From: a virus
Strand: one strand, 5' to 3'
Length of the DNA stretch: 64,000 nt
IMG/VR virus record: IMGVR_UViG_3300036766_000548
Coordinates: 1 to 64,000 of that record
Positions 6,339 through 63,537 of this stretch are shown here, piece after piece. The translations under genes were made by a program, and so were the position numbers. The number at the start of each line of letters is the position of its first letter. Within the stretch, counting starts at the first letter, position 1. A model generated the notes under the pieces. It was not told the origin of the DNA. It worked only from the letters and a program-made list of their open reading frames with translations, and did no database searches.

Positions 6339-8816
6339 ATGCCCGAACAAATTGAAATAGACTTAAAGGGATTCTCAAAAAAGATAAATCCCAAGTTCAT
6401 TCCATTGATAAAGGATCGCCATCCATTACAAATAGTAGTTGGTGGTGCCAATAGTTCTAAATGTTTTGCCAAAGGCATGCAAATTGTAATGTATTCAGGT
6501 GAATTGAAAAATGTAGAAGATATCGTTATTGGTGATTTGTTAATGGGAATTGATTCAACTCCTAGAAAGGTATTAAATACAAATAATGGTTATGGGAAAC
6601 TATATAAAGTATACCAACACCGAGGAGATGATTATACAGTTAATGAAAATCATATTTTATGTTTGAAGAAAAGTAAAAGTTGCAATAGATATAAAGAAGA
6701 TGGAGATTATATAGAAATATCTGTTTCTGATTATTTGAATAAAAGCACAAGATGGAAAAGAAATTTTTTAGGATATAGGACTGGAATTGATTTCTCAAAT
6801 AAGGAAGTTTCTATCGATCCTTATTATCTTGGTTTGTGGTTAGGAGATGGTGATAAAAATAGATTGTCTATTACGTCAATAGATGATGAAATAATAGAAT
6901 ATATATATGATTATGCCAAGAAAATAGGCGAGCGTGTTTCAATGATAAATAAATATGGCTATAATATCAATCATATTAAATATTCAAATGAAGTAAAGAA
7001 AGAGATTGCTAATATTTTTGCTAATGGTATTGTTGGCCATGGTTGGAAAAAAGGAACATTGAGATTAGTATGTGATAAAACTGGAATAAGTAATAGAGTA
7101 TGTTATCAATGGCTGAAAAATAAATCATTCATTAAATTGGTGGAATATTATAAGAAGCATCCAAAAGAAATTGATTATGATATAATTGAAAAAGAAAAAC
7201 AACAGGAAACACTTTACAGTAAGTTTGTTGAATATAATCTATTTTACAATAAGCATATTCCTAATGATTATTTATATAATTCATATGATATTCGATTAAA
7301 GTTATTGGCTGGAATTATTGATACTGATGGAAGTATGAAGGCTAATTGTTATACAGTAATTCAAAAGGATGAAAAATTATCATTCCAAATAAAGTATTTA
7401 GCTAATTCATTAGGATTCAAGTGTTCAATAACTAAAAGAAAATGTGAATGTGTTAATAATGGAGTGATAGGCGATTACTATTCAATGTGTATTTCTGGTA
7501 ATACTGAAAAAATACCTTGTAGGATAAAAAGAAAGATAGTAAAAAATCAAAGTGATAGAAAAGATCATTCGGTAATAGGAATTGATATTATTCAAATGGA
7601 AGATGGCGAATATTATGGATTTACTGTAGATAAGGATAATAAAGTTTTACTATCTGATTTTACAATAACACACAATTCATATAGCTATGCAGAAAAGATT
7701 ATTTATCATACAATACGGGAAAAGTATTTCCGGTGTTTGGCTACACGAAAAGTAAAAAAGGATGTAAAGCATTCTGTCTACGATCAATTGCGCGAAGTAT
7801 TGAATAGGTATAAATTAGAAAACTATTTCACTTACAATAATACTGAAAGTAATATTGTTTGCAAGTTGAATGGAAATGATATATTAGGCGTAGGTCTTGA
7901 TGATGTAAACAAATTAAAATCATTCACCAATCCTACATTCTTTTGGGCAGAAGAAGCTGATCAAATGACTCCAGATGATATTGAGCAATTAAGTCTACGA
8001 TTGCGTGGCCCTGACTATTGTTTCTTTCAAGGTGGATTGACATTAAATCCAATCAACGCCCAGCATTGGATCAAGTTAAAATATTTTGATCATAAGAATG
8101 ATGGGTGGATAACACATCATTCTACATATAAGGATAATCAATTCCTTTCGCCTAAAATTATTCAAAGAATGGAAGCGATAACTGATCCATATTATATAAA
8201 AGTATATGTGAATGGAGAATGGGGAATATTTACAAATGGTGTATTCTCAAATTATATAATAGAGGATTTTGATTATACAGAAAACGATTTAGAAGATGTT
8301 TGTTATGGAATGGACTTTGGATTTACCCATGCCCAGGCGATTGAGTGCGCTGGATTCAAGGATGGCGAATTATATGTATTTGACGAGTTGTGGGAAAAGG
8401 GGAAAACAAACAATCAATTCATGGATGATGCGAAAGACTATTTCGGTGATAAATTATATGATATGAGGATGACATGTGATTCCGCCGATCCTGACAAGAT
8501 AATAGAATGGGATAGAAGTGGATTTAGAGTAGAATCCGCGAAAAAGGGCCCAGGATCAGTGCGGTTTGGCATTGAATATTTGGTTGATAAAAAGATACAT
8601 ATACATGAAAGCAAGTGTGCCAATATCGCAAAAGAGATTCAACAGTTCAGGCGCAAAGAAGACAAGAATGGAAATGTTACTGAGGATTTTATAGAAGTGA
8701 ATGATGATGGAATAGCGGCATTGCGATATGGTACTGAATATATTTGGTCAAATACAAATCAAGTTTTTTATGATGGCACTAATGATAAATGGTCATTAAG
8801 CGAATTGGGATTATAA
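6339..8816 (+). CDS. terL: Terminase large subunit (PBSX/SPP1-type), intein-containing
   Basis: Walker A GGANSSK/S, GLDDVNKLKS, Walker B WAEEA, LTLNP, GMDFG, nuclease DDGIAALRY. Confidence 0.95.
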   Translation: MPEQIEIDLKGFSKKINPKFIPLIKDRHPLQIVVGGANSSKCFAKGMQIVMYSGELKNVEDIVIGDLLMGIDSTPRKVLNTNNGYGKLYKVYQHRGDDYTVNENHILCLKKSKSCNRYKEDGDYIEISVSDYLNKSTRWKRNFLGYRTGIDFSNKEVSIDPYYLGLWLGDGDKNRLSITSIDDEIIEYIYDYAKKIGERVSMINKYGYNINHIKYSNEVKKEIANIFANGIVGHGWKKGTLRLVCDKTGISNRVCYQWLKNKSFIKLVEYYKKHPKEIDYDIIEKEKQQETLYSKFVEYNLFYNKHIPNDYLYNSYDIRLKLLAGIIDTDGSMKANCYTVIQKDEKLSFQIKYLANSLGFKCSITKRKCECVNNGVIGDYYSMCISGNTEKIPCRIKRKIVKNQSDRKDHSVIGIDIIQMEDGEYYGFTVDKDNKVLLSDFTITHNSYSYAEKIIYHTIREKYFRCLATRKVKKDVKHSVYDQLREVLNRYKLENYFTYNNTESNIVCKLNGNDILGVGLDDVNKLKSFTNPTFFWAEEADQMTPDDIEQLSLRLRGPDYCFFQGGLTLNPINAQHWIKLKYFDHKNDGWITHHSTYKDNQFLSPKIIQRMEAITDPYYIKVYVNGEWGIFTNGVFSNYIIEDFDYTENDLEDVCYGMDFGFTHAQAIECAGFKDGELYVFDELWEKGKTNNQFMDDAKDYFGDKLYDMRMTCDSADPDKIIEWDRSGFRVESAKKGPGSVRFGIEYLVDKKIHIHESKCANIAKEIQQFRRKEDKNGNVTEDFIEVNDDGIAALRYGTEYIWSNTNQVFYDGTNDKWSLSELGL
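6462..7676 (+). mobile_element. Intein (405 aa) with LAGLIDADG homing endonuclease, inserted in TerL Walker A
   Basis: Begins CFAKG, block B TVNENHIL, YYLGLWLGDG and LLAGIIDTDG, ends THN followed by Ser. Confidence 0.95.
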
Positions 8817-10382: not shown

Positions 10383-10652
10383 ATGGGTGGACCAGGATCA
10401 GGAAGAAGGAAGGGCGGCGGTAAAGGATTTAGTACATCAGGTAAAAATCCAAGTTTAGGTAGGGCCGGGGCATTTAAATCAATGTTCCAAAAAGGGCCTT
10501 CAACAAAGCAAATGAGAACTGAAAAGAAAGCATTGCAAATTAAAAAAGCTACAAATAGAAAAAACGCTAGCGTGCAATTGTCTAAACCATCTACTAAAGG
10601 CGTTCAAAAAATGTATTATAAAAATGTTAGGTCTGCTAATAAGGCACATTAA
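10383..10652 (+). CDS. MGGPGSGR-family basic mini-protein copy 3
   Basis: AAGGAG-N6-ATG; shared tag. Confidence 0.8.
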   Translation: MGGPGSGRRKGGGKGFSTSGKNPSLGRAGAFKSMFQKGPSTKQMRTEKKALQIKKATNRKNASVQLSKPSTKGVQKMYYKNVRSANKAH

Positions 10653-52144: not shown

Positions 52145-52267
52145 TTAATTCTCACAGATAATAGCGAGTTGACCACAAGCAGCACCGGCGTTAATTTCGG
52201 CTTGTGTCGCGATTGCAATGGCATAATCATAACCAGACTTCTGTAATTCTTCCTTAATGCGTTCCAT
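52145..52267 (-). CDS. 40-aa peptide equivalent to the RlmN/Cfr C-terminal catalytic-Cys segment (missing from ORF track)
   Basis: GGAG RBS; MERIKEELQKSGYDYAIAIATQAEINAGAACGQLAIICEN. Confidence 0.8.
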   Translation of the reverse strand: MERIKEELQKSGYDYAIAIATQAEINAGAACGQLAIICEN

Positions 52268-53078
52268 ATATTTCTCCTTCTACTAAAATAGGATCGTCGA
52301 TAAATCCGTTCCTCAAAGAATGAATATCAAGTACTAAATTACCCGCAATGCATTTCATTTGATTATTTACTTCACGTTGATATATTTTTGGATATGGATA
52401 TTTGTTGTATATAAAATTAGCACATGAACAACCGTCCCTTTCCATTGATATTGTTTTTCTATAACCAATTAAATCATTTATTGCGACATAATGATTGACA
52501 CTATAATCGTTTACTTTCATAAGACCCACAAATCCAAAATCCAATACTCCTTTATTTGAATAATATTCTATATATTCATTTATTTTTTCGTTTGAATCAA
52601 CAAGTCCTTTTTGTAGAACGCATGATAAATGCAATTTATCATTCCCATAAATATCAATCATTGAATCAATCTCGAAATCGTTTATTGAATGCCTACTTAA
52701 TGAAATACTATTCACTAATTCATTATTCAACTCGATGCCCTTTCTAGTGTTTATAATTATAAACATTTCAGGGAAAAATGACCGTATCAATTTACATGCC
52801 TGTTCTACCTCATTAGTAAAATATCCTGGCTCACCTCCAGTAAAAGAAACCCTGTTTATATTGATATTTTTGTCTTTTATGCTAGTCAAAATATAAGACA
52901 AAAGGTCCAAAGAAAATACATCCTTTTTATCTGAACTATATACACAAAATGGACACCCCATATCACAATAATCAGATACGCGAATAAATAAATTAACATA
53001 AGGATCGCAATATTTTTGAGATAAACAATCAAAATTTTTTGTCTTTACAACATCTATCCAACTAGACATTTTTAGCAA
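52254..53078 (-). CDS. Radical SAM protein
   Basis: CDMGCPFC, FTGGEP. Confidence 0.85.
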   Translation of the reverse strand: MLKMSSWIDVVKTKNFDCLSQKYCDPYVNLFIRVSDYCDMGCPFCVYSSDKKDVFSLDLLSYILTSIKDKNININRVSFTGGEPGYFTNEVEQACKLIRSFFPEMFIIINTRKGIELNNELVNSISLSRHSINDFEIDSMIDIYGNDKLHLSCVLQKGLVDSNEKINEYIEYYSNKGVLDFGFVGLMKVNDYSVNHYVAINDLIGYRKTISMERDGCSCANFIYNKYPYPKIYQREVNNQMKCIAGNLVLDIHSLRNGFIDDPILVEGEIYGTH

Positions 53079-53362
53079 TGCCCACTACCACAACCACAAC
53101 CACCGCTACTACCGCCTCTATTTATATCACTAGAATTAATAATCTTTTTTTTACTCATGTTTTTAATAGGCTTGTCCTCACAATATTTATTATCGATAAA
53201 ATGAATTAGTAAATCAAAACACTCATTAGATATGGCGCCGTCAATATGGAGCTGATTTATTCTTTTATACACATTTATTATACCATTTGTTTTTATGCTC
53301 TCTTTTATACTCGGTAGCCAGAATTCCATTTCTTCGTTCAATTCTCTTTCATTTGATTGCAT
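53072..53362 (-). CDS. Small protein with Gly/Ser/Cys-rich C-terminal tail (start MQSN)
   Basis: AAGGAG RBS before ATG at 53362; ends RGGSSGGCGCGSGHC. Confidence 0.7.
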   Translation of the reverse strand: MQSNERELNEEMEFWLPSIKESIKTNGIINVYKRINQLHIDGAISNECFDLLIHFIDNKYCEDKPIKNMSKKKIINSSDINRGGSSGGCGCGSGHC

Positions 53363-53375
53363 TTTTAGTACTCCT

Positions 53376-54161
53376 TTATATGATATTAATGCCTTGAATG
53401 GCACCATTTCCCATATTGTTTTTCTCAGAAATCGTATTTTTATTTATTGGTGATAACTTGATAAAAAATCTATTCTTGTCAAAAAGTCTCTTTAATTCTT
53501 CTATATCAAAATCGCCTTCTTCAACCAATGTCATGTTAATAGTTGTTTTAAGATTGCTTTTGGTCCGTATATTGCTTAATTGTTCTAGTGTCATTTTATT
53601 TTTATATGGAATAAGCCAATTTCGTTTTTCATTTTTAAGAGAATGCACGGATATTTGAAGGGTTATGTTGTCCTTTATCCAAGAAAAATCAGAACCAATA
53701 ATGCCTATCGTAGAAATATAATGATGAGTTTTAGGATATTTTTCATCTATTTTAAATATAGCATCCTTTACATTATCTATATTTAGGAACGGTTCACCCA
53801 TTCTAGTATAATTTATCTTGTGTTCAAATGCTTCTTGAAAACGTTCAGTTCTTTTAGATAAAACAAATTCAACTTGTTCCACAATTTCTTGCGATGTAAG
53901 GTTCCTGTATTTTTTCATTGCACCCGTAGCACAAAATTTGCATCTAACTGGACATCCCGACATCGTAGAAACGCCAATCATCCAACGTTCTTTTCTACTC
54001 CCTATTTTTGTATCATGAAGTATATTTTGTTTTTGTCCAATAGCATCTTTAGTATATGAAGGCAAAAATGTATCGGTTACCTCAATAAGAAAATTATCTT
54101 CTGTTTTTAAGGCATATACAATTCCATTTGCGAATTCTTTATGCTTAATTTCTGTCAACAT
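53376..54161 (-). CDS. RlmN/Cfr-like radical SAM enzyme lacking the C-terminal CGQL
   Basis: VSTMSGCPVRCKFCATG, RNLT..EIVEQV, MGEP.LN, ISTIG, LQISVH. Confidence 0.85.
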   Translation of the reverse strand: MLTEIKHKEFANGIVYALKTEDNFLIEVTDTFLPSYTKDAIGQKQNILHDTKIGSRKERWMIGVSTMSGCPVRCKFCATGAMKKYRNLTSQEIVEQVEFVLSKRTERFQEAFEHKINYTRMGEPFLNIDNVKDAIFKIDEKYPKTHHYISTIGIIGSDFSWIKDNITLQISVHSLKNEKRNWLIPYKNKMTLEQLSNIRTKSNLKTTINMTLVEEGDFDIEELKRLFDKNRFFIKLSPINKNTISEKNNMGNGAIQGINII

Positions 54162-54251
54162 TTACCATCTCCTTATTCCATTTTCTACTATTCAATGTCG
54201 TAACCAAATCATCCACATCTCCAGTATAATATCTCCAATAATCCCGCTTGT

Positions 54252-55226
54252 CTATTTTGTTATATTCCCTTGACCAATATCCTTTGCCTTATTATTATGA
54301 TCTATACAAACATCCAAACAATTTTTTCTGCAAATAAGATCGTTATAAGTATTTGTTTTTTCAAACCATATTTTTCTTTCTTGTCTAATTTCTTTAATAG
54401 ATTTCCCATAAACATTCCCAATAGCTTCGCCTTGCTCGCGCATATAAATTACACAAGGAAAATGTTTTCCATGTAAAATAACCATATCATCTTTTACTAA
54501 ATGGCATTTATTGCAATCGGTTTCTTTCATGCCTCTAACATGCCTTCCATTATTTATATTATTGATCCTATATTTCAATATCTTATATTTTGTTTTTACG
54601 TTTATATTCAAATAATGATTTGATTGTGCTGTAGGAATAATTCTAATATCTGATACTTTTAATTTAGTTGCAAATTCAATAATATTTTTCAATTCATCAT
54701 TATTTTGTTTGTCCAATACCACCCCTACAGTTACATAAGTCAATTTAGATAATTCTTTTATAATCATCGCTATATGCTCAAAATGAGAATTGGTCCCTGC
54801 CATAATATCGGCAGTAGAAGAGCAACAGGCATCTAGCGAAATTGAAAAATCATTTATTCCGGCTTTGTGTAATTGCTTATAATATTCTAATTCTGCCGAT
54901 CCATTTGTAGAAATAGCAATATGTTTAATACATTTTTTGCTTTTAGTGTATTGAACCAATTCTAATAAATCTTTCCATATAGTAGGCTCACCACCTGAAA
55001 ATCTTATATTATGTAAATTAGCAGAAGTCCAGATATCTACAATTTCTTTTGCTTGCTCTAAAGTTAAATCCCCTTGAAGGTCTTTTACTATCCCTCGGCA
55101 ATAAGGACATTTGAAATTACAACGATTAGTCAATATCAATTCACACCGTTGTAAATCACTTTCCCAAGAAACGTTTTTTGCCCTTTTATCGGAAAGAGTA
55201 TAAAATCCAATATCTTCAAGTTTCAA
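54252..55226 (-). CDS. MoaA/PqqE-like radical SAM protein with Cys-rich C-terminal domain
   Basis: CNFKCPYC, FSGGEP, STNGS, SISLD; C-terminal CxxC..PC..CxxxCxxxC. Confidence 0.85.
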   Translation of the reverse strand: MKLEDIGFYTLSDKRAKNVSWESDLQRCELILTNRCNFKCPYCRGIVKDLQGDLTLEQAKEIVDIWTSANLHNIRFSGGEPTIWKDLLELVQYTKSKKCIKHIAISTNGSAELEYYKQLHKAGINDFSISLDACCSSTADIMAGTNSHFEHIAMIIKELSKLTYVTVGVVLDKQNNDELKNIIEFATKLKVSDIRIIPTAQSNHYLNINVKTKYKILKYRINNINNGRHVRGMKETDCNKCHLVKDDMVILHGKHFPCVIYMREQGEAIGNVYGKSIKEIRQERKIWFEKTNTYNDLICRKNCLDVCIDHNNKAKDIGQGNITK

Positions 55227-56097
55227 TATTTAACTCCTTTCTAACTATATTTTCCTCATCCTTTGTATAATCACCAGGATCATGTTCAAACTCAGGATTG
55301 AATATTTCCACTTCCACGCCTAATGCCGATAACTGCTCACCATATTTTCTCGCCCTATCCTGCGCCATTTTCTCATTGTCGAATAAAAATATAACTTTCT
55401 TGAATCGTTTGGAAAGTAGGTTTATTTGTTCCGGTGTAATTTCAATACCGAAAGAACAAGAAACATTATTGTGGCCTAATCTCCAACAATCGAATGGCCC
55501 TTCTACCAATATTATATAGTTATTCATACAATTATCTAGGTTATATAGTATTTTTTTATTGGAAATAATTGCTTTATCTGTTTTTAAATTTCTATATCTA
55601 ATTTCATTGTTTACAATTGTTCTCCCTAAGAATGTCACTAATTTATTTTGATAAAAAACTGGAATAATAATTCTAAAATTCCATTCTCCTATAATCCCTC
55701 CACCTTGTATTTTATATGTATCTACTAAATAATAAGGATCAAAATTCCTTTTAATCAAATATTTCCTTTCTTTTTCATTTAATATACTTCCAGGCAATTC
55801 AATATTATGTATTTTACCTTGTGTTTTATTCAATTTATTCAATACTATTTTATCAATAGTATTTTCATTTAATAATATATTAAGATCATTAAACGACAAA
55901 TTCAATAATTTTTGTAAAATATCCTTTGCATTTATTCCACCACATCGCCAACAATTATAATAAAATTCATTTAGATTAAATCCACCATGATATTTAGTAT
56001 CATTACAATTTGGACAGCAAACATTTATCCATCCATTATCACCTACTTGATATTTTATTCCATATTGTTTGAACATACTAGGAAGATCAATTTTCAT
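55216..56097 (-). CDS. DNA primase (zinc finger + TOPRIM)
   Basis: CPNC...H...CWRCG, RIIIP, GR, VEGPFD, FDNE. Confidence 0.85.
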   Translation of the reverse strand: MKIDLPSMFKQYGIKYQVGDNGWINVCCPNCNDTKYHGGFNLNEFYYNCWRCGGINAKDILQKLLNLSFNDLNILLNENTIDKIVLNKLNKTQGKIHNIELPGSILNEKERKYLIKRNFDPYYLVDTYKIQGGGIIGEWNFRIIIPVFYQNKLVTFLGRTIVNNEIRYRNLKTDKAIISNKKILYNLDNCMNNYIILVEGPFDCWRLGHNNVSCSFGIEITPEQINLLSKRFKKVIFLFDNEKMAQDRARKYGEQLSALGVEVEIFNPEFEHDPGDYTKDEENIVRKELNIET

Positions 56098-56860
56098 TGT
56101 TCTTCCTTTTTGCTGCTTCTTTTCGTTCTCTAGTTTTACGTTTTGTTTCTTTTAATTTGTTTATAGATTCTTGTGTCCATACTCTACCTACGCCTCTTAA
56201 TCCAATTATTCTTTTTTGTTCATCTGTTAAATGTTTATGTAATCTTAATTGCGCTTGTCTATTTTTTTCTATTTGTTCTGGAGTCTTTTTTCTGCCCTTT
56301 TGTGCATCGCTAATTTTCTTTTTAGTTTCCTCTGATACTGGATGACCTTTTATCCTTTGTGATAATTTCTTTTTGGCCTCTTCTGTATGATGTCTACCTA
56401 GATGAGCTAATCTGTTTTTTTCTTTTGCTTCTTTAGATGGTTTCCATCCTAAATTTCTTAATCTAGATTTTTCACAAAACTCTTTTGATCTTTTTTGTCC
56501 TTTATTAGCTATGCTTAATTTCTTTCTTGTAACTTCGTTGGGTATTCCTCCTGATCCACCGCCGTCCATAAGGTTATATCCATATTTGCTGTTTGTGCTT
56601 TTATATTCTTTAATCCAATATTTTTCTTTTCTATCTAATGTTCTTTTTGAGTAAGCAAAATCTATTGTAGCCCATTTGAAATTGTTTTTGCCATATTTTT
56701 TTAACGCCCTTTGAAAATAATAACCATCCCCTCTTTGAGCACTAGATAAATGCAATGATTTTCTTCTTCTTAATGTTCCAGTAGTTTGCCCAATATAAAC
56801 TTTATCATTCATGATGTTTCTAGCTCTGTAAATAATGCCATAAAGTTTCTTTTCTTTCAT
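56087..56860 (-). CDS. GIY-YIG homing endonuclease with NUMOD3 repeats
   Basis: IIY...N..N.KVYIGQT, ALKKYG..NF, GYN...GG, repeated SEE.K.KIS. Confidence 0.9.
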   Translation of the reverse strand: MKEKKLYGIIYRARNIMNDKVYIGQTTGTLRRRKSLHLSSAQRGDGYYFQRALKKYGKNNFKWATIDFAYSKRTLDRKEKYWIKEYKSTNSKYGYNLMDGGGSGGIPNEVTRKKLSIANKGQKRSKEFCEKSRLRNLGWKPSKEAKEKNRLAHLGRHHTEEAKKKLSQRIKGHPVSEETKKKISDAQKGRKKTPEQIEKNRQAQLRLHKHLTDEQKRIIGLRGVGRVWTQESINKLKETKRKTRERKEAAKRKNNEN

Positions 56861-56875
56861 AAATATTTGTTAAAT

Positions 56876-56992
56876 AAAAAACCATTAGTGAAGCGGGCTG
56901 GCAGGCCTTCATAGGAATGCACGTTCCTATTCGCTTCACTAATGGCTCTATTTTCTCCGTGCAAAGTTTTAGATTAGTTACTGCCATAACTA
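56876..56992 (-). ncRNA. Putative structured leader with double kissing loops and terminator
   Basis: 14-bp stem, four hairpins with pairwise complementary 6-nt loops, U tract. Confidence 0.65.
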
Positions 56993-57004
56993 TTCCATAC
57001 ATAT

Positions 57005-57036
57005 AATATATACTCCTTTTGACAAAATGTAAAGTA
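57005..57036 (-). promoter_or_regulatory. Promoter TTTACA-N17-TATATT for the GIY-YIG/primase leader
   Basis: Correct spacing; same TACTTTA context as + strand promoters. Confidence 0.6.
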
Positions 57037-57108
57037 CCTTATCCATCCATCCACTTCTTGCTTGTAATCAATATTATTGTCTTTCAGCAGACGGATGAAA
57101 TCAATCAT

Positions 57109-57405
57109 TTACTTAATTTCAAAAATATCTTTAACATCTGGATGGGTAAAATTATCTGATTCTGTTGTTTTTTTAAACATCTTTTTATGATAATATTTAC
57201 AACTTCTCAATTCTGATATTGCACATGAAAAAGCAAAAATAGGGTTTAATTGTTTAAATTCCGGTTGATAATCTCTAGTCCTTTCTTCATGAAAAATAGC
57301 TCTACTAATCAATTGATTATAAGCATTTTTATTTTTGCAATAACTAATAATTCCCATCATAGTAATATCATATGAATAATTTTTGCAGCTTTCACATACG
57401 CTCAT
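57109..57405 (-). CDS. Hypothetical Cys-containing protein
   Basis: AAGGAG RBS; CxxC. Confidence 0.55.
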   Translation of the reverse strand: MSVCESCKNYSYDITMMGIISYCKNKNAYNQLISRAIFHEERTRDYQPEFKQLNPIFAFSCAISELRSCKYYHKKMFKKTTESDNFTHPDVKDIFEIK

Positions 57406-57409
57406 TTAA

Positions 57410-57793
57410 TTACTCCTTTCCATTATCAAGAGGAAGCAATTCATTCCTAGTCGGTAGTTCCACCTTCGGCTTTGCCCTGCTCTTCCTTACCTTTGGTTTT
57501 GCCTCGATGATCATATCAGCCACTGCCTCAATTTTCTCATCCTCGCATGAAGTGATCTTGGTAATATATTCTGTTACCTTCGCACGGCACTCATGATTCG
57601 GCAGAATGATATATGACCCATTGCTAAATGTCTCCCACATAAGCTGGATGAGTTTATTGATGTCCGTCCTGCCATTAGCATCGGTGTACAGGTTTTCCAC
57701 CTTCGCCCTCTGCAATGCCTTATAAAAATACTCCTCGGTGACATAGCCATAAACCTTGTGATTCGTCGGATCATTCATCTTCACTTCCATCAT
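57410..57793 (-). CDS. Hypothetical protein
   Basis: AAGGAG RBS; GC-richer than flanks. Confidence 0.6.
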   Translation of the reverse strand: MMEVKMNDPTNHKVYGYVTEEYFYKALQRAKVENLYTDANGRTDINKLIQLMWETFSNGSYIILPNHECRAKVTEYITKITSCEDEKIEAVADMIIEAKPKVRKSRAKPKVELPTRNELLPLDNGKE

Positions 57794-57805
57794 ATACTCC
57801 TTTGA

Positions 57806-58540
57806 TTAAAAACCTTTATAAACATAAAATATTCCATCCTTATCCCACATATATCCATAACCCAATTTCCAGATTTCCCAAACTTTATTAAAAAAATCAA
57901 TAGCTATTGAATCTTCAGAAATAATAGATGCGGCTGACTCTGCGGCTGACTCTGCGGCTGACCATGCGGCTGACCTTGCGGCTGACCTTGCGGCTGACCA
58001 TGTGGCTGACTCTGCGGCTGACCATGCGGCTGACCATGCGGCTGACCTTGCGGCTGACTTTGCGGCTGACTTTGCGGCTGACTTTGCGGCTGACCATGCG
58101 GCTGACTTTGCGGCTGACCATGCGGCTGACTCTGCGGCTGACCATGCGGCTGACCTTGCGGCTTCATAAGTATCAAACACTTTCCAATTTTCTTTTATCT
58201 CGCCATGATTATCAAACCATTTTACATTCTTGATGTCATTTATGAATTTCTGAGCATTCAACCACCATTCATTTTTAATATTACCTTTTGCATCATACCT
58301 TACGCCAGCAACACCAAAGCATTTTGCCATCTTATCCATATGGCCATCATTTATTCTTTTAGCAATCTGTACGGGAACCTTTTGCCAATTCTCATGGTGA
58401 GTACCAGCAATTCCATAATATTTTTCTATTGCTGAATGTCCGATAGCATCTTCAAATTCAAGTCCTTTGGCCTCGATGATGTCATCTTCAAGCCAATACA
58501 ATTTCCGTCCTACTGATACCCAAGAACAAAAATCGCACAT
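57806..58540 (-). CDS. AAxS tetrapeptide-repeat phage protein
   Basis: MCDF.SW...GHS.I N-terminus; AGGAGG RBS; repeat tract. Confidence 0.75.
   Translation of the reverse strand: MCDFCSWVSVGRKLYWLEDDIIEAKGLEFEDAIGHSAIEKYYGIAGTHHENWQKVPVQIAKRINDGHMDKMAKCFGVAGVRYDAKGNIKNEWWLNAQKFINDIKNVKWFDNHGEIKENWKVFDTYEAARSAAWSAAESAAWSAAKSAAWSAAKSAAKSAAKSAARSAAWSAAWSAAESATWSAARSAARSAAWSAAESAAESAASIISEDSIAIDFFNKVWEIWKLGYGYMWDKDGIFYVYKGF
57929..58162. repeat. 12-bp tandem repeat, about 19.5 units (TGCGGCTGACnn)
   Basis: Encodes AA[W/K/R/E]S on the - strand. Confidence 0.95.
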
Positions 58541-58574
58541 TCAAAATACCTCCTATAAAATAACTTCTGATCTA

Positions 58575-58913
58575 TTATATATTAACTTTAAGTTTTTTCC
58601 TCTCACAAATGAAATATTCTGAAAGTATTTTTATTATCTCCTCCTTGTTCTGCCAAATATCATTTTGAATAATTGCCCTTTCGATCTTTCGGCACTCGTC
58701 ATATCGATGCAATGGCCGCATGGCATTCCTGATGCTTGGCCAAAAATCAAAGCCAGTTTTCCAATGCCGAGATATCTTCAATACAGGCTTTTCATATACT
58801 TTTACTTCTTCAACCTTATTTCGCTTTTGTATCCTGCCCATTCGCATTTTGTCTTTTTGCTCTTGAGATAATACAAATCCTTTTGGTCTACCCATTTTCA
58901 TGCCTCCATGCAA
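58575..58913 (-). CDS. Hypothetical basic protein
   Basis: GRPKG motif; GGAGG RBS before an internal start. Confidence 0.55.
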   Translation of the reverse strand: MHGGMKMGRPKGFVLSQEQKDKMRMGRIQKRNKVEEVKVYEKPVLKISRHWKTGFDFWPSIRNAMRPLHRYDECRKIERAIIQNDIWQNKEEIIKILSEYFICERKKLKVNI

Positions 58914-59521
58914 AAAGAATCTTTATTAGACTCTTGCCACCACAATTTTATCTCTTGCCATGTCCTTAGTATCCTTGAATTTTTCCAACCCCTCAAACCA
59001 TATATTTCCTTTATATGTGAAAATCTCGGTATCCAGTTCTTTTCTACATCTTCCCATTCCCGCGATAAAATATATTGTAAAATGTCCTTTGCATCGCCTG
59101 ACAAGGAAATTTCATAATCCATTTTATCCAATACTTTTTCAAATATGGAATAATCATAAATTGTCGCATCATCAGTATATAAGCGATTAATATAAATATT
59201 ATGCCCATATCCCCTAACCTTTGGATGCTTAATACGTTGTACTGATTTCAGATTGTTTCTATGTTCATTTTTACAATATCTATCTAATCTATTTAATTCT
59301 CCATAAAGATATGTAGCAAAAGATGCTTTAGTTGGATCGAGTTTTTCTAGCGCCTCGCAAAAAATCAAATACCCTTGCCCTTCGATTTCCGAAAAATCAA
59401 GATGATATTTTTTTGAATATTCCCATGCCGCCTTCTCGACCATCGGGCGGAATTGGTTGAATTGCCTTGTAGAATATTCTTTTGTTATCATTTTTCTATG
59501 ATCCAACCTAAAAACAACCAT
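58898..59521 (-). CDS. Sigma-70 region 2-like protein
   Basis: IFCEAL.K.DPTKASFATYL. Confidence 0.6.
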   Translation of the reverse strand: MVVFRLDHRKMITKEYSTRQFNQFRPMVEKAAWEYSKKYHLDFSEIEGQGYLIFCEALEKLDPTKASFATYLYGELNRLDRYCKNEHRNNLKSVQRIKHPKVRGYGHNIYINRLYTDDATIYDYSIFEKVLDKMDYEISLSGDAKDILQYILSREWEDVEKNWIPRFSHIKEIYGLRGWKNSRILRTWQEIKLWWQESNKDSFCMEA

Positions 59522-60044: not shown

Positions 60045-60810
60045 TTATTTCTCCTTGCACAATCCTTCTTGGCTTCTTCCGTAGTCAATGCTATTTTCCG
60101 TTTCTTGTAGTCGTCTTTTTCAGAATAAAAAACAGGATAAGGACGCGGATCGTCATTGGACATATAATATCCAACAATCATCGGAGATTTTTCTTTTTTG
60201 ATCATTTTGTATTTGCACCATGAAGTTGCCATATAGCAATGGCAAAAGTAAGTTCAGTTTTGGAAATCTCGTCCCGATGAAATGCCTGGAAATAATACTT
60301 CAACTCTTCATAGCTCATAATAACTCCTATCAATTAAATCTATTAGCTCCAGTCAGATTTGAACTGACACTGAATGGATTTTAAGTCCATTGCCTACTGC
60401 CAATTGGGCTATGGAGCCATAAAAATCTATTTTTGCATCCGCCACATCTTATAATCATCTATGGTGTCAAAAAACATCCATCCGCCAGAGACTTTGATGA
60501 TCTTTGCCCAGTCATGACCGGCCCTCTGTAATGCCTCTTCCCTAGTATCAGCCTCGATGAACTTCATTTGGTCCTCCTATAAAAAGACTATTGGCAAGGC
60601 GAAGAGCATCAATGCTAGTCGGGGCTTCTTGGACGATTGTCCCGAGTCCATGCCACGCGGGCTGTTTGAAAAGAAAGCAAGTCTCTACATTAGCGCTCAT
60701 TAGTGACTCCTTTTGAATCCTTAATCTTCTTCGTGCAAAGCTTCAATGCCATGCAGCCCCGACAGCCGCGCAAATGCCTCCGTTCGCAATCAGTTTTGAT
60801 TTTCATTTAT

Positions 60811-62005: not shown

Positions 62006-63223
62006 TTATTCATCTATCCCATGTTGTTCTTTCATTTCATCCATGAACCATTTCCAAGTCGGGCATTTCGCTCCAAAATGTTTCAAGTGTTTTATCCCTA
62101 AATGGCTGTTCAGAAAATCATAATAGCTATGAATGAACGTATCCTCATCCTCCAAACAATATTTGTAATTTATGTTTTCAGCTATCAGGTCATCGGCATT
62201 GTCTCGATACCATGTATGCACGGAATATACCCTGGTCCAATATGCAAGGCCATCCCAATCACTATTATATAGCTCTTCAAAGTAATTTTTATAGATTTCT
62301 GGAACTTTATTGTAGATAGACTCGGCAATTACTTCGCGGGTCTTGGATGCCTTCTTCAAAATGGTTATATAAAACATTGAACTATTATTTATTGGATTAA
62401 ACATGAATGACCCTATATCTCGCGTCAACCAATTCTTGTTTTCTGATTCCCTGTCGTTTTCAAACCATGATAAATAATTCTTGGCCGAGCATTTCAGAAC
62501 CATATATATTTGATTCCAATTTCCTTTGCACCTGTTTATCTCTTTTATTGTTTCATTTGTTATGTATGAAATATTCTTTTCAATAAACCAATCAGCTAGT
62601 TTATGCCTAGATAGATATCGCCCTTCATAAAGATCATATAGGGCATCCTGGAATTTCTTCATTGATTTTGTATATATCTTGTGATCGGTCGGAAAGGTGA
62701 AGCTGAATAACTTTCTATTGTCCGGCAATCGCAATTTGTCTAATTCAATTAATATTTTTTCGGTATTGGGAAGTAATTGTCCTAGTGATTTTTTAGTTTC
62801 TTGTTTGGGTTGTAATTTATTGATAATGCCTTCATCGAATAATCCATCGGTATATTGTACGCCTTTCATTTTAGCTATCACCTCCGGGCGAATGGCAACA
62901 AATGATTTATTGACTAGATTGATATTTACTTTCTGCCGTATCAATGGATATTCATTATAATTGCTTTTATTCTTTCCTGAAAGCCTATTTAACATGGCAT
63001 TTATGGAAGTATTGTTTTTTAGATATAACAAAGGAAGGTCTTTTATCACTTTTGTATAGGTGATCCAATAATAATCATGTTCTTTTTCTTCATTCAAATC
63101 ATCAGGTAATTTTAGCATTCTGTTTGAATCCTTGAAGTTTATGAGCCATTCAAGGAAATAAGCATCATCCAAGGTTAAACCAAGTTTTACCAATTCCTTG
63201 TCATCATAGGATGCTATATACAT
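62006..63223 (-). CDS. Putative replication initiator / wHTH DNA-binding protein
   Basis: N-terminal L.KLGL.LDD..FLEWL..F..S...YYWI.Y..VI.DLP.L resembles phage replisome-organiser N-termini. Confidence 0.5.
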   Translation of the reverse strand: MYIASYDDKELVKLGLTLDDAYFLEWLINFKDSNRMLKLPDDLNEEKEHDYYWITYTKVIKDLPLLYLKNNTSINAMLNRLSGKNKSNYNEYPLIRQKVNINLVNKSFVAIRPEVIAKMKGVQYTDGLFDEGIINKLQPKQETKKSLGQLLPNTEKILIELDKLRLPDNRKLFSFTFPTDHKIYTKSMKKFQDALYDLYEGRYLSRHKLADWFIEKNISYITNETIKEINRCKGNWNQIYMVLKCSAKNYLSWFENDRESENKNWLTRDIGSFMFNPINNSSMFYITILKKASKTREVIAESIYNKVPEIYKNYFEELYNSDWDGLAYWTRVYSVHTWYRDNADDLIAENINYKYCLEDEDTFIHSYYDFLNSHLGIKHLKHFGAKCPTWKWFMDEMKEQHGIDE

Positions 63224-63241
63224 TTTTTAACTCCCTTTAGT

Positions 63242-63349
63242 AAAAAGAAAACCCTTCCTTGCGCCACTACACGCTTAGAAGGGTTATATTATCCAAGAAA
63301 ATCAGCTATTCAAGGTAGTGGTCTCGAATAGGTGATCTTGTTTTTCTTG
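63242..63349 (-). ncRNA. Putative kissing-loop leader/attenuator of 62006..63223
   Basis: Two hairpins with complementary loops CCACUAC/GUAGUGG; second followed by U-rich tail. Confidence 0.6.
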
Positions 63350-63537
63350 ACTCTATAAATATAACACATATCTATATAAAAATAAAATGGCTAAAAATAG
63401 AAATAACAGGAAGCGAAAAGCTTCTATGTATTTATTACTATAAATACTCTATCTCTTCTAATGTATTCTATCTCTTATACATAGAAAATGAACATTTTTC
63501 ATCGATAGATAATATCCATTTTCTATGGTAAAAACAA

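Follow-up and report, generated by a model that had tools for sequence, protein, structure and literature searches.

Homing endonucleases have to be made and yet kept at a low level. To our knowledge, the way in which free-standing homing endonucleases are kept low is known for only a few T4 genes. In T-even phages, terminators or hairpins accompany homing endonuclease genes (mobE of T4 and Aeh1; I-TevI-type genes), in which a stem followed by a U-tract occurs together with the endonuclease gene and presumably restrains a risky nuclease. The T4 mobE terminator occurs only in mobE-carrying T-even phages, limits mobE transcripts and causes 30-50% termination (PMC2790892). This terminator, a plain hairpin of 9 bp, is located within the coding region, and mobE lacks a promoter of its own.

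Other RNA systems share parts of the architecture described here. In the phages P1 and P7, c4 combines a promoter, two short sites (a1 and b1), a long closing stem with a three-way junction and complements in nested order, and c4 acts on downstream a2 and b2 sites at the icd ribosome-binding site. The purine riboswitch likewise contains a three-way junction whose loops make contact, and in the cobalamin riboswitch the loop of a regulatory hairpin is kissed by one from an upstream domain (L5-L13). Type III toxin-antitoxin systems (ToxIN) follow the order promoter, structured RNA, terminator and nuclease gene.

Here, we describe a leader RNA of ~125 nt from an uncultured phage that most likely keeps a risky endonuclease at a low level, as judged from its sequence and its relatives. 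It is located in a window of 64,000 nucleotides, i.e. the whole stretch of DNA that was analysed (positions 1 to 64,000 of the IMG/VR record IMGVR_UViG_3300036766_000548), and the phage genome that holds this window is complete, 78 kb long, with terminal repeats and a G+C content of ~32%. As in the T-even phages, a G+C-containing stem followed by a U-tract is present only alongside the endonuclease gene. In contrast to the mobE element, the leader has a dedicated promoter, and its terminator-like stem is placed between this promoter and the ATG, forms the closing stem of a three-way junction and is connected to the 5' domain by two covarying long-range helices. The architecture of c4 is likewise shared, but membership in the c4 family fails: the a' site of c4 resides in a junction strand, whereas its counterpart in the leader is a loop, a2/b2-type sites are absent for the leader, and a U-tract directly 3' of the stem sets the leader apart from c4. 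Compared with the cobalamin and purine riboswitches, there is no similarity in sequence or model, the contacts are two in number and the closing stem itself appears to be the terminator. Finally, different from ToxIN, the leader RNA has no tandem repeats, and the downstream protein is a DNA homing endonuclease and not an RNA-processing RNase.

The endonuclease cassette

The genes around the element in this part of the window are located on the - strand. The features of the locus are the following (SD, Shine-Dalgarno sequence; L-numbers refer to IMG/VR relatives):

57040-57108, - strand: 5' relic of a primase gene (first 23 codons, L003/L004 type) just upstream of the cassette; start of a 44-aa ORF (56974-57108)
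57034, - strand: left border of the cassette, 1 nt 5' of the -35 hexamer
57005-57033, - strand: sigma-70-like promoter TTTACA-17 nt-TATATT (-35, 57033-57028; -10, 57010-57005)
56820-57018, - strand: SD-like AAGGAG (57018-57013) and upstream ORF of 60 codons, from ATG at 57002 to stop at 56820; status uncertain
56975-56992, - strand: hairpin A, 6-bp stem (56992-56987/56980-56975) with loop UGGCAG (56986-56981)
56966-56974, - strand: conserved single-stranded linker AUCUAAAAC, nearly invariant between types 1 and 2
56958-56963, - strand: site B, UGCACG, partner of the B' loop, with a conserved GGAG after it
56932-56946, - strand: 5' strand of the closing stem, 15 bp with 56895-56881
56911-56930, - strand: hairpin B', 7-bp stem with loop CGUGCA (56923-56918); junction A56931 before it
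56896-56910, - strand: junction GAA (56910-56908) and hairpin A', GGC/GCC stem with loop CUGCCA (56904-56899)
56876-56895, - strand: 3' strand of the closing stem (56895-56881) and U-tract (56881-56876), intrinsic-terminator-like
56087-56875, - strand: A/U-rich 15-nt spacer without SD (56875-56861) and GIY-YIG/NUMOD3 homing endonuclease gene (56860-56087; Pfam; 257 aa)
55216-56097, - strand: intact primase (Toprim) gene, sharing 11 nt with the end of the endonuclease gene; neighbour of the cassette, outside the RNA element

To find relatives of the leader, IMG/VR was scanned with proteins and patterns as guides, and covariance-model searches were then run. Seven copies were found in six IMG/VR contigs, which comprise three loop types and one hybrid. 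Type 1 is present in the window, L002, L065 (copy a) and L066, and type 2 in L003. Type 2b, the second copy of L065 (copy b), has a 3' half identical to type 2 and a different 5' half, while type 3 is represented by L191, a more distant copy. The element also occurs in contigs from other sediment, groundwater and lake runs, and its carriers are a few uncultured freshwater and sediment phages. Searches of 716 kb of unrelated phage DNA, of ~200 further GIY-YIG loci and of the primase loci without a cassette (L004-L006) gave no leader match. The complete contigs of five relatives contained no additional copies, and the final searches with the loop pattern and the junction pattern returned the known copies only. 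The sole match of the pattern in a genome contig, L268, proved to be a thioredoxin gene and thus a chance match, as was the match in L186. The pattern TGAAGGCCNNCCAGCCC produced more than 119 chance matches in G+C-rich phages among the viral contigs, which were reused as a negative control. A blastn search with 3 kb against GenBank phages gave no matches, and in tblastn searches with the primase every relative was at most 30% identical. As none of these primase relatives exceeds 30% identity, there is no cultured model phage.

All seven leader copies are located 15-19 nt before a GIY-YIG ORF. In the window, this gene is the sole GIY-YIG gene of the genome, and the presence of a GIY-YIG domain with NUMOD3 repeats (Pfam) together with its intergenic insertion identifies it as a free-standing GIY-YIG homing endonuclease gene. 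The cassette was found at three sites: it either precedes or follows a primase gene or, in two contigs, separates a gene of unknown function from the DNA polymerase region. Its start in the relatives is 1-8 nt past the stop codon of the upstream gene. L065 carries two cassettes of types 1 and 2b (367-499 and 10507-10640), which are 10 kb apart on opposite strands, and the second of these is the hybrid with a 3' half identical to L003. The association of the leader exclusively with GIY-YIG genes, at three sites, marks it as the head of a mobile endonuclease cassette. Thus, the element is evidently the 5' module of a portable cassette consisting of a promoter, a folded RNA and an SD-less GIY-YIG gene. 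The proposal of an earlier note, made from the sequence of the window alone, that the leader heads an operon of GIY-YIG, primase and radical SAM genes was therefore abandoned. A near-identical type-1 leader also precedes endonucleases that are only 46% and 37% identical to that of the window, and such travelling before unrelated endonuclease genes shows that selfish genes and regulatory RNA parts are shuffled jointly. Within L065, a third GIY-YIG gene (7799-8566, - strand) lacks such a leader, which indicates that not every endonuclease gene in these phages uses it.

The left border of the cassette at 57034 is defined by the start of the homology to L002. A contig from another sediment run diverges at the same position, followed by 199 unrelated letters. 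Just upstream of the border, the primase relic is 90% identical in nucleotide sequence to the start of the primase genes of L003 and L004, and its protein shares MIDFIRLLKDNNI..QEVDGW with the L003 and L004 primases. The intact primase of the window has a divergent N-terminus of the L002 type and a C-terminus common to all. The relic resembles a scar left by homing or recombination, in which the endonuclease would have driven an allele replacement. A group I intron carrying the GIY-YIG gene was also considered and rejected, because no intron model matched and the primase ORF is complete with its own N-terminus; the 23 codons of the relic duplicate the primase start and do not complete it. In the same region of the window, three radical SAM genes (Pfam) follow directly 3' of the primase gene (52145-55226, - strand), and a single tRNA gene, tRNA-Leu with the anticodon UAA, is located at 60343-60419 (- strand).

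The promoter TTTACA-17-TATATT was confirmed at the place given in the earlier note, and with 10 of 12 matching positions it is the top sigma-70-like match in a 4-kb scan (55000-59000). Its -10 element is present in all leader types, with the sequence TATAAT in L191. The conserved 26-nt promoter block was considered as a repeated phage promoter, which was rejected because the block is unique in the genome.

Fold and covariation of the leader RNA

The minimum free energy fold reproduces hairpin A and the three-way junction with -44.6 kcal/mol (z = -5.0), and none of 200 shuffled sequences was equally stable. All features proposed in the earlier note were found on the - strand at their assigned positions. 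Its perfect 14-bp stem followed by U6 and enclosing the CGUGCA and CUGCCA hairpins was reproduced and gains one additional pair: the closing stem consists of 14 Watson-Crick pairs (56945-56932/56895-56882) and G56946-U56881. A U-tract of 5-6 nt directly follows the 15-bp stem in every copy. The loops A/A' and B/B' had been described as reverse complements in nested order, which is exact in the window and is re-created with new letters in the other types. The same note had placed UGCACG in the loop of a hairpin B. While the position is correct, the hairpin could not be maintained, because in the window it is supported by a 3-bp CUU/GAG stem only, which is lost in the other types. Site B is better described as a single-stranded linker site than as a conserved hairpin. 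Thus, of the two loop-loop contacts proposed to control a terminator-like three-way junction, two long-range contacts remain, the second of which is a loop-to-linker contact.

In an alignment of five sequences, the 29 nested pairs and the 6-bp A/A' helix are paired throughout (35 of 35 pairs, 100%). Sixteen of these 35 pairs are changed on both sides, a value that was reached in none of 500 shuffles, and slid controls gave 0-1; the independent lineages behind this covariation number only three or four. The closing stem is paired at 15 of 15 positions in all copies and contains six pairs with changes on both sides. In hairpin B', five of the six counted stem pairs are changed on both sides, and in hairpin A three of the five stem pairs of the model (both in the five-sequence alignment). 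Across the types, the stem of hairpin A reads UAGUUA/UAACUA, CAUUG/CAAUG, AUAUCA/UGAUGU and AUGCUU/AGGUAU. Numbered from the loop, positions 1, 2, 4 and 5 show two-sided changes. At position 3, three types have U-A and the fourth has C-G, and L003 has a U-U mismatch at position 6. In the region of hairpin A', UGAAGGCC and GCCC are invariant.

Compensatory loop changes in homologous leaders, which the earlier note had named as a check, were found for both contacts. The A and A' loops are always exact complements (UGGCAG/CUGCCA, UGGUGG/CCACCA, CGCCGG/CCGGCG), with covariation at two of the six positions in the five-sequence alignment and at four of six when L191 is added. The B and B' sequences are exact complements of 6-7 nt in each type (UGCACG/CGUGCA, CACGGA/UCCGUG, UGUGGGA/UCCCACA), and the pairing uses the same place of the linker in a slightly shifted register and with new letters. 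In L191, the whole fold is retained with new letters, and both contacts are again formed by exact complements. The probability of a chance match per type is 0.007-0.03 for B/B' and 0.001-0.02 for a complement of A' anywhere in the 5' half. The cognate loop duplexes have predicted energies of -7.6 to -10.7 kcal/mol, compared with -1 to -5 kcal/mol for non-cognate combinations. These results show that the fold and both long-range pairings are real and are kept by compensation.

The most conserved letters are found in unpaired segments, i.e. the -10 region, the linker AUCUAAAA, the GGAG after site B, the junction A and GAA, and the U-tract. Such conservation of unpaired segments is expected of a functional RNA. 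In types 2b and 3, the linker at 56966-56974 reads UCUUAAAU.

An element acting at the DNA level, such as a cruciform or a single-stranded hairpin used for replication priming, recombination or endonuclease binding beside the primase gene, would be in line with the presence of a 15-bp inverted repeat and with the position next to a primase gene in three contigs. However, two copies are located far from any primase gene near the DNA polymerase region, the element is framed by a conserved promoter and a U-tract, and in the repeat the pairing is conserved but the letters are not. In addition, G-U pairs, which would be G-T pairs in DNA, are confined to the sense strand, and this argues for an RNA rather than a DNA inverted repeat. 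A DNA-level function is therefore highly improbable.

Proposed termination and alternative functions

The structure of the leader is well proven, and from it we infer an RNA-based control of a selfish nuclease gene. As the regulatory head of a portable cassette, the fold may act in cis as a terminator that throttles and insulates the endonuclease gene, a reading to which we assign an even chance. In this model, the sigma-70-type promoter would drive a leader of ~125 nt, which would fold into hairpin A, the linker and the 15-bp stem that closes the three-way junction with B' and A'. The A' loop would then kiss the loop of hairpin A by six base pairs and the B' loop would pair with the linker site B, so that two tertiary helices lock the 5' domain onto both arms of the junction. 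Locking could stabilise the terminator-competent fold, speed its formation or shield the RNA. Most transcripts, whether initiated at the cassette promoter or in upstream genes, would end as a short RNA at 56881-56876, and rare read-through transcripts, poorly translated for want of an SD, would yield the potentially harmful nuclease.

Termination as a throttle and insulator provides the best fit to the dedicated promoter, the terminator-like stem with its U-tract, the SD-less gene and the exclusive presence with an endonuclease gene. The stem and U-tract are present only where the endonuclease gene is present and are absent from the cassette-free primase loci L004-L006. An SD was found before the endonuclease ATG in none of the copies, and SD sites at -14 to -9 are clearly in use among the genes of the phage itself. 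A local fold that sequesters the endonuclease start was also considered, but the effect was not significant and was inconsistent across the copies. The weak point of a simple throttle is that a perfect 15-bp stem with a U-tract should terminate unaided, which leaves the two conserved contacts unexplained. An efficient terminator would also cut off the downstream primase gene, barring an internal promoter, and none is established. Furthermore, the riboswitch-like conservation of the unpaired segments counts against a simple throttle and could reflect the sensing of a ligand or a protein.

A conditional switch of this kind, in which the fold responds to a ligand, a protein or the stage of infection and the kissing contacts set termination or translation, would explain why conserved unpaired segments are found beside freely covarying helices. 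Three-way junctions with long-range loop contacts are a common aptamer design, and a kissing loop, L5-L13, is known from the literature to regulate cobalamin riboswitches. On the other hand, the closing stem doubles as the putative terminator stem and is very stable within a fold of -44.6 kcal/mol, no alternative antiterminator pairing was found, and no Rfam riboswitch matched. The regulated gene is moreover a selfish nuclease without an obvious metabolite link, which provides no candidate ligand. A switch is therefore an unlikely explanation.

The resemblance to c4 raises the possibility that the RNA acts in trans. After termination or processing, its two loops would bind A- and B-type sites on other transcripts, for example on read-through mRNAs of the same cassette or on those of a co-infecting phage, and the loop types would represent orthogonal groups of immunity or specificity. 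In P1 c4, a 17-bp stem closes a three-way junction, and the upstream sites a1 and b1 follow its promoters in the identical nested order. The loops are also orthogonal between the leader types, as deduced from the weak non-cognate duplexes (-1 to -5 kcal/mol), and a single contig bears two cassettes of differing loop type. However, the leader does not match Rfam C4, and in the copies examined, conserved a2/b2-type sites are missing both at the endonuclease start and 3' of it. The leader loops match the upstream sites A and B, and neither matches the endonuclease start region. Elsewhere in the genome, paired A..B-like words are no more frequent than by chance, so that no target in trans stands out, and the loops would be masked by the cis sites. 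Covariation is as fast in the stems as in the loops, so that the variety of the loops is accounted for by ordinary compensatory drift. We therefore consider an antisense RNA acting in trans unlikely. An immunity module with orthogonal address loops, which would act in trans, set expression per cassette type and mediate interference during co-infection, is quite unlikely.

Translation could also be linked to the fold. On transcripts from upstream genes, the SD and ATG at 57018-57000 might start the short ORF, and ribosomes would melt the terminator and feed the SD-less endonuclease start, while hairpin A and its kissing partner would gate the short ORF. In the window, this ORF spans the whole fold and its stop is 41 nt past the endonuclease ATG. 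One frame is open to 4-41 nt past this ATG in types 1, 2 and 2b, and it stays open despite a frame-shifting 1-nt indel between the types, while the other frames contain up to 10 stops. The spacing of the AAGGAG is typical of the genes of this phage, and in L003 the stop overlaps the start as ATGA. Nevertheless, L191 lacks both the SD and the ATG, and the predicted transcription start is 2-4 nt 3' of the ATG, so that transcripts from the cassette promoter would not contain it. Few stops are in any case expected in a G+C-richer structured stretch, and the peptide is not conserved, which makes this coupling decidedly improbable. The overlapping ORF was also considered as a small protein in its own right and rejected, because its peptide is frame-shifted between the types.

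Novelty, potential uses and a second leader

The leader had not been recognised as a member of a named family in the earlier note. This was substantiated by the Rfam search that the note had suggested: an Rfam 15 cmscan of 55800-57600 with E-values up to 10 listed only ctRNA_p42d (18.5 bits) and MIR7723 (17.5 bits), which are chance-level matches far below the gathering scores, and the C4 model was unlisted even at E = 10. In full-text searches of the literature, no paper was found that describes a structured leader or a kissing-loop leader before GIY-YIG genes.

Tertiary contacts that are visible by covariation in only three or four lineages are rare for a new motif, and the leader provides a good model for the folding of kissing loops and three-way junctions. 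With its three loop pairs, which are orthogonal by nature, the common scaffold could provide building blocks for synthetic terminators or RNA switches.

A second candidate leader, which is unrelated in sequence, is located at 63215-63370 (- strand) of the window. It consists of a hairpin with the loop CCACUAC and a subsequent terminator-like hairpin with the loop GUAGUGG, followed by a U-rich tail, an SD and an ATG. Its fold has a z-score of -4.8, and it precedes a gene that does not encode an endonuclease. The presence of this second leader with one putative kissing pair suggests that the kissing-loop design may be a general device of this phage.
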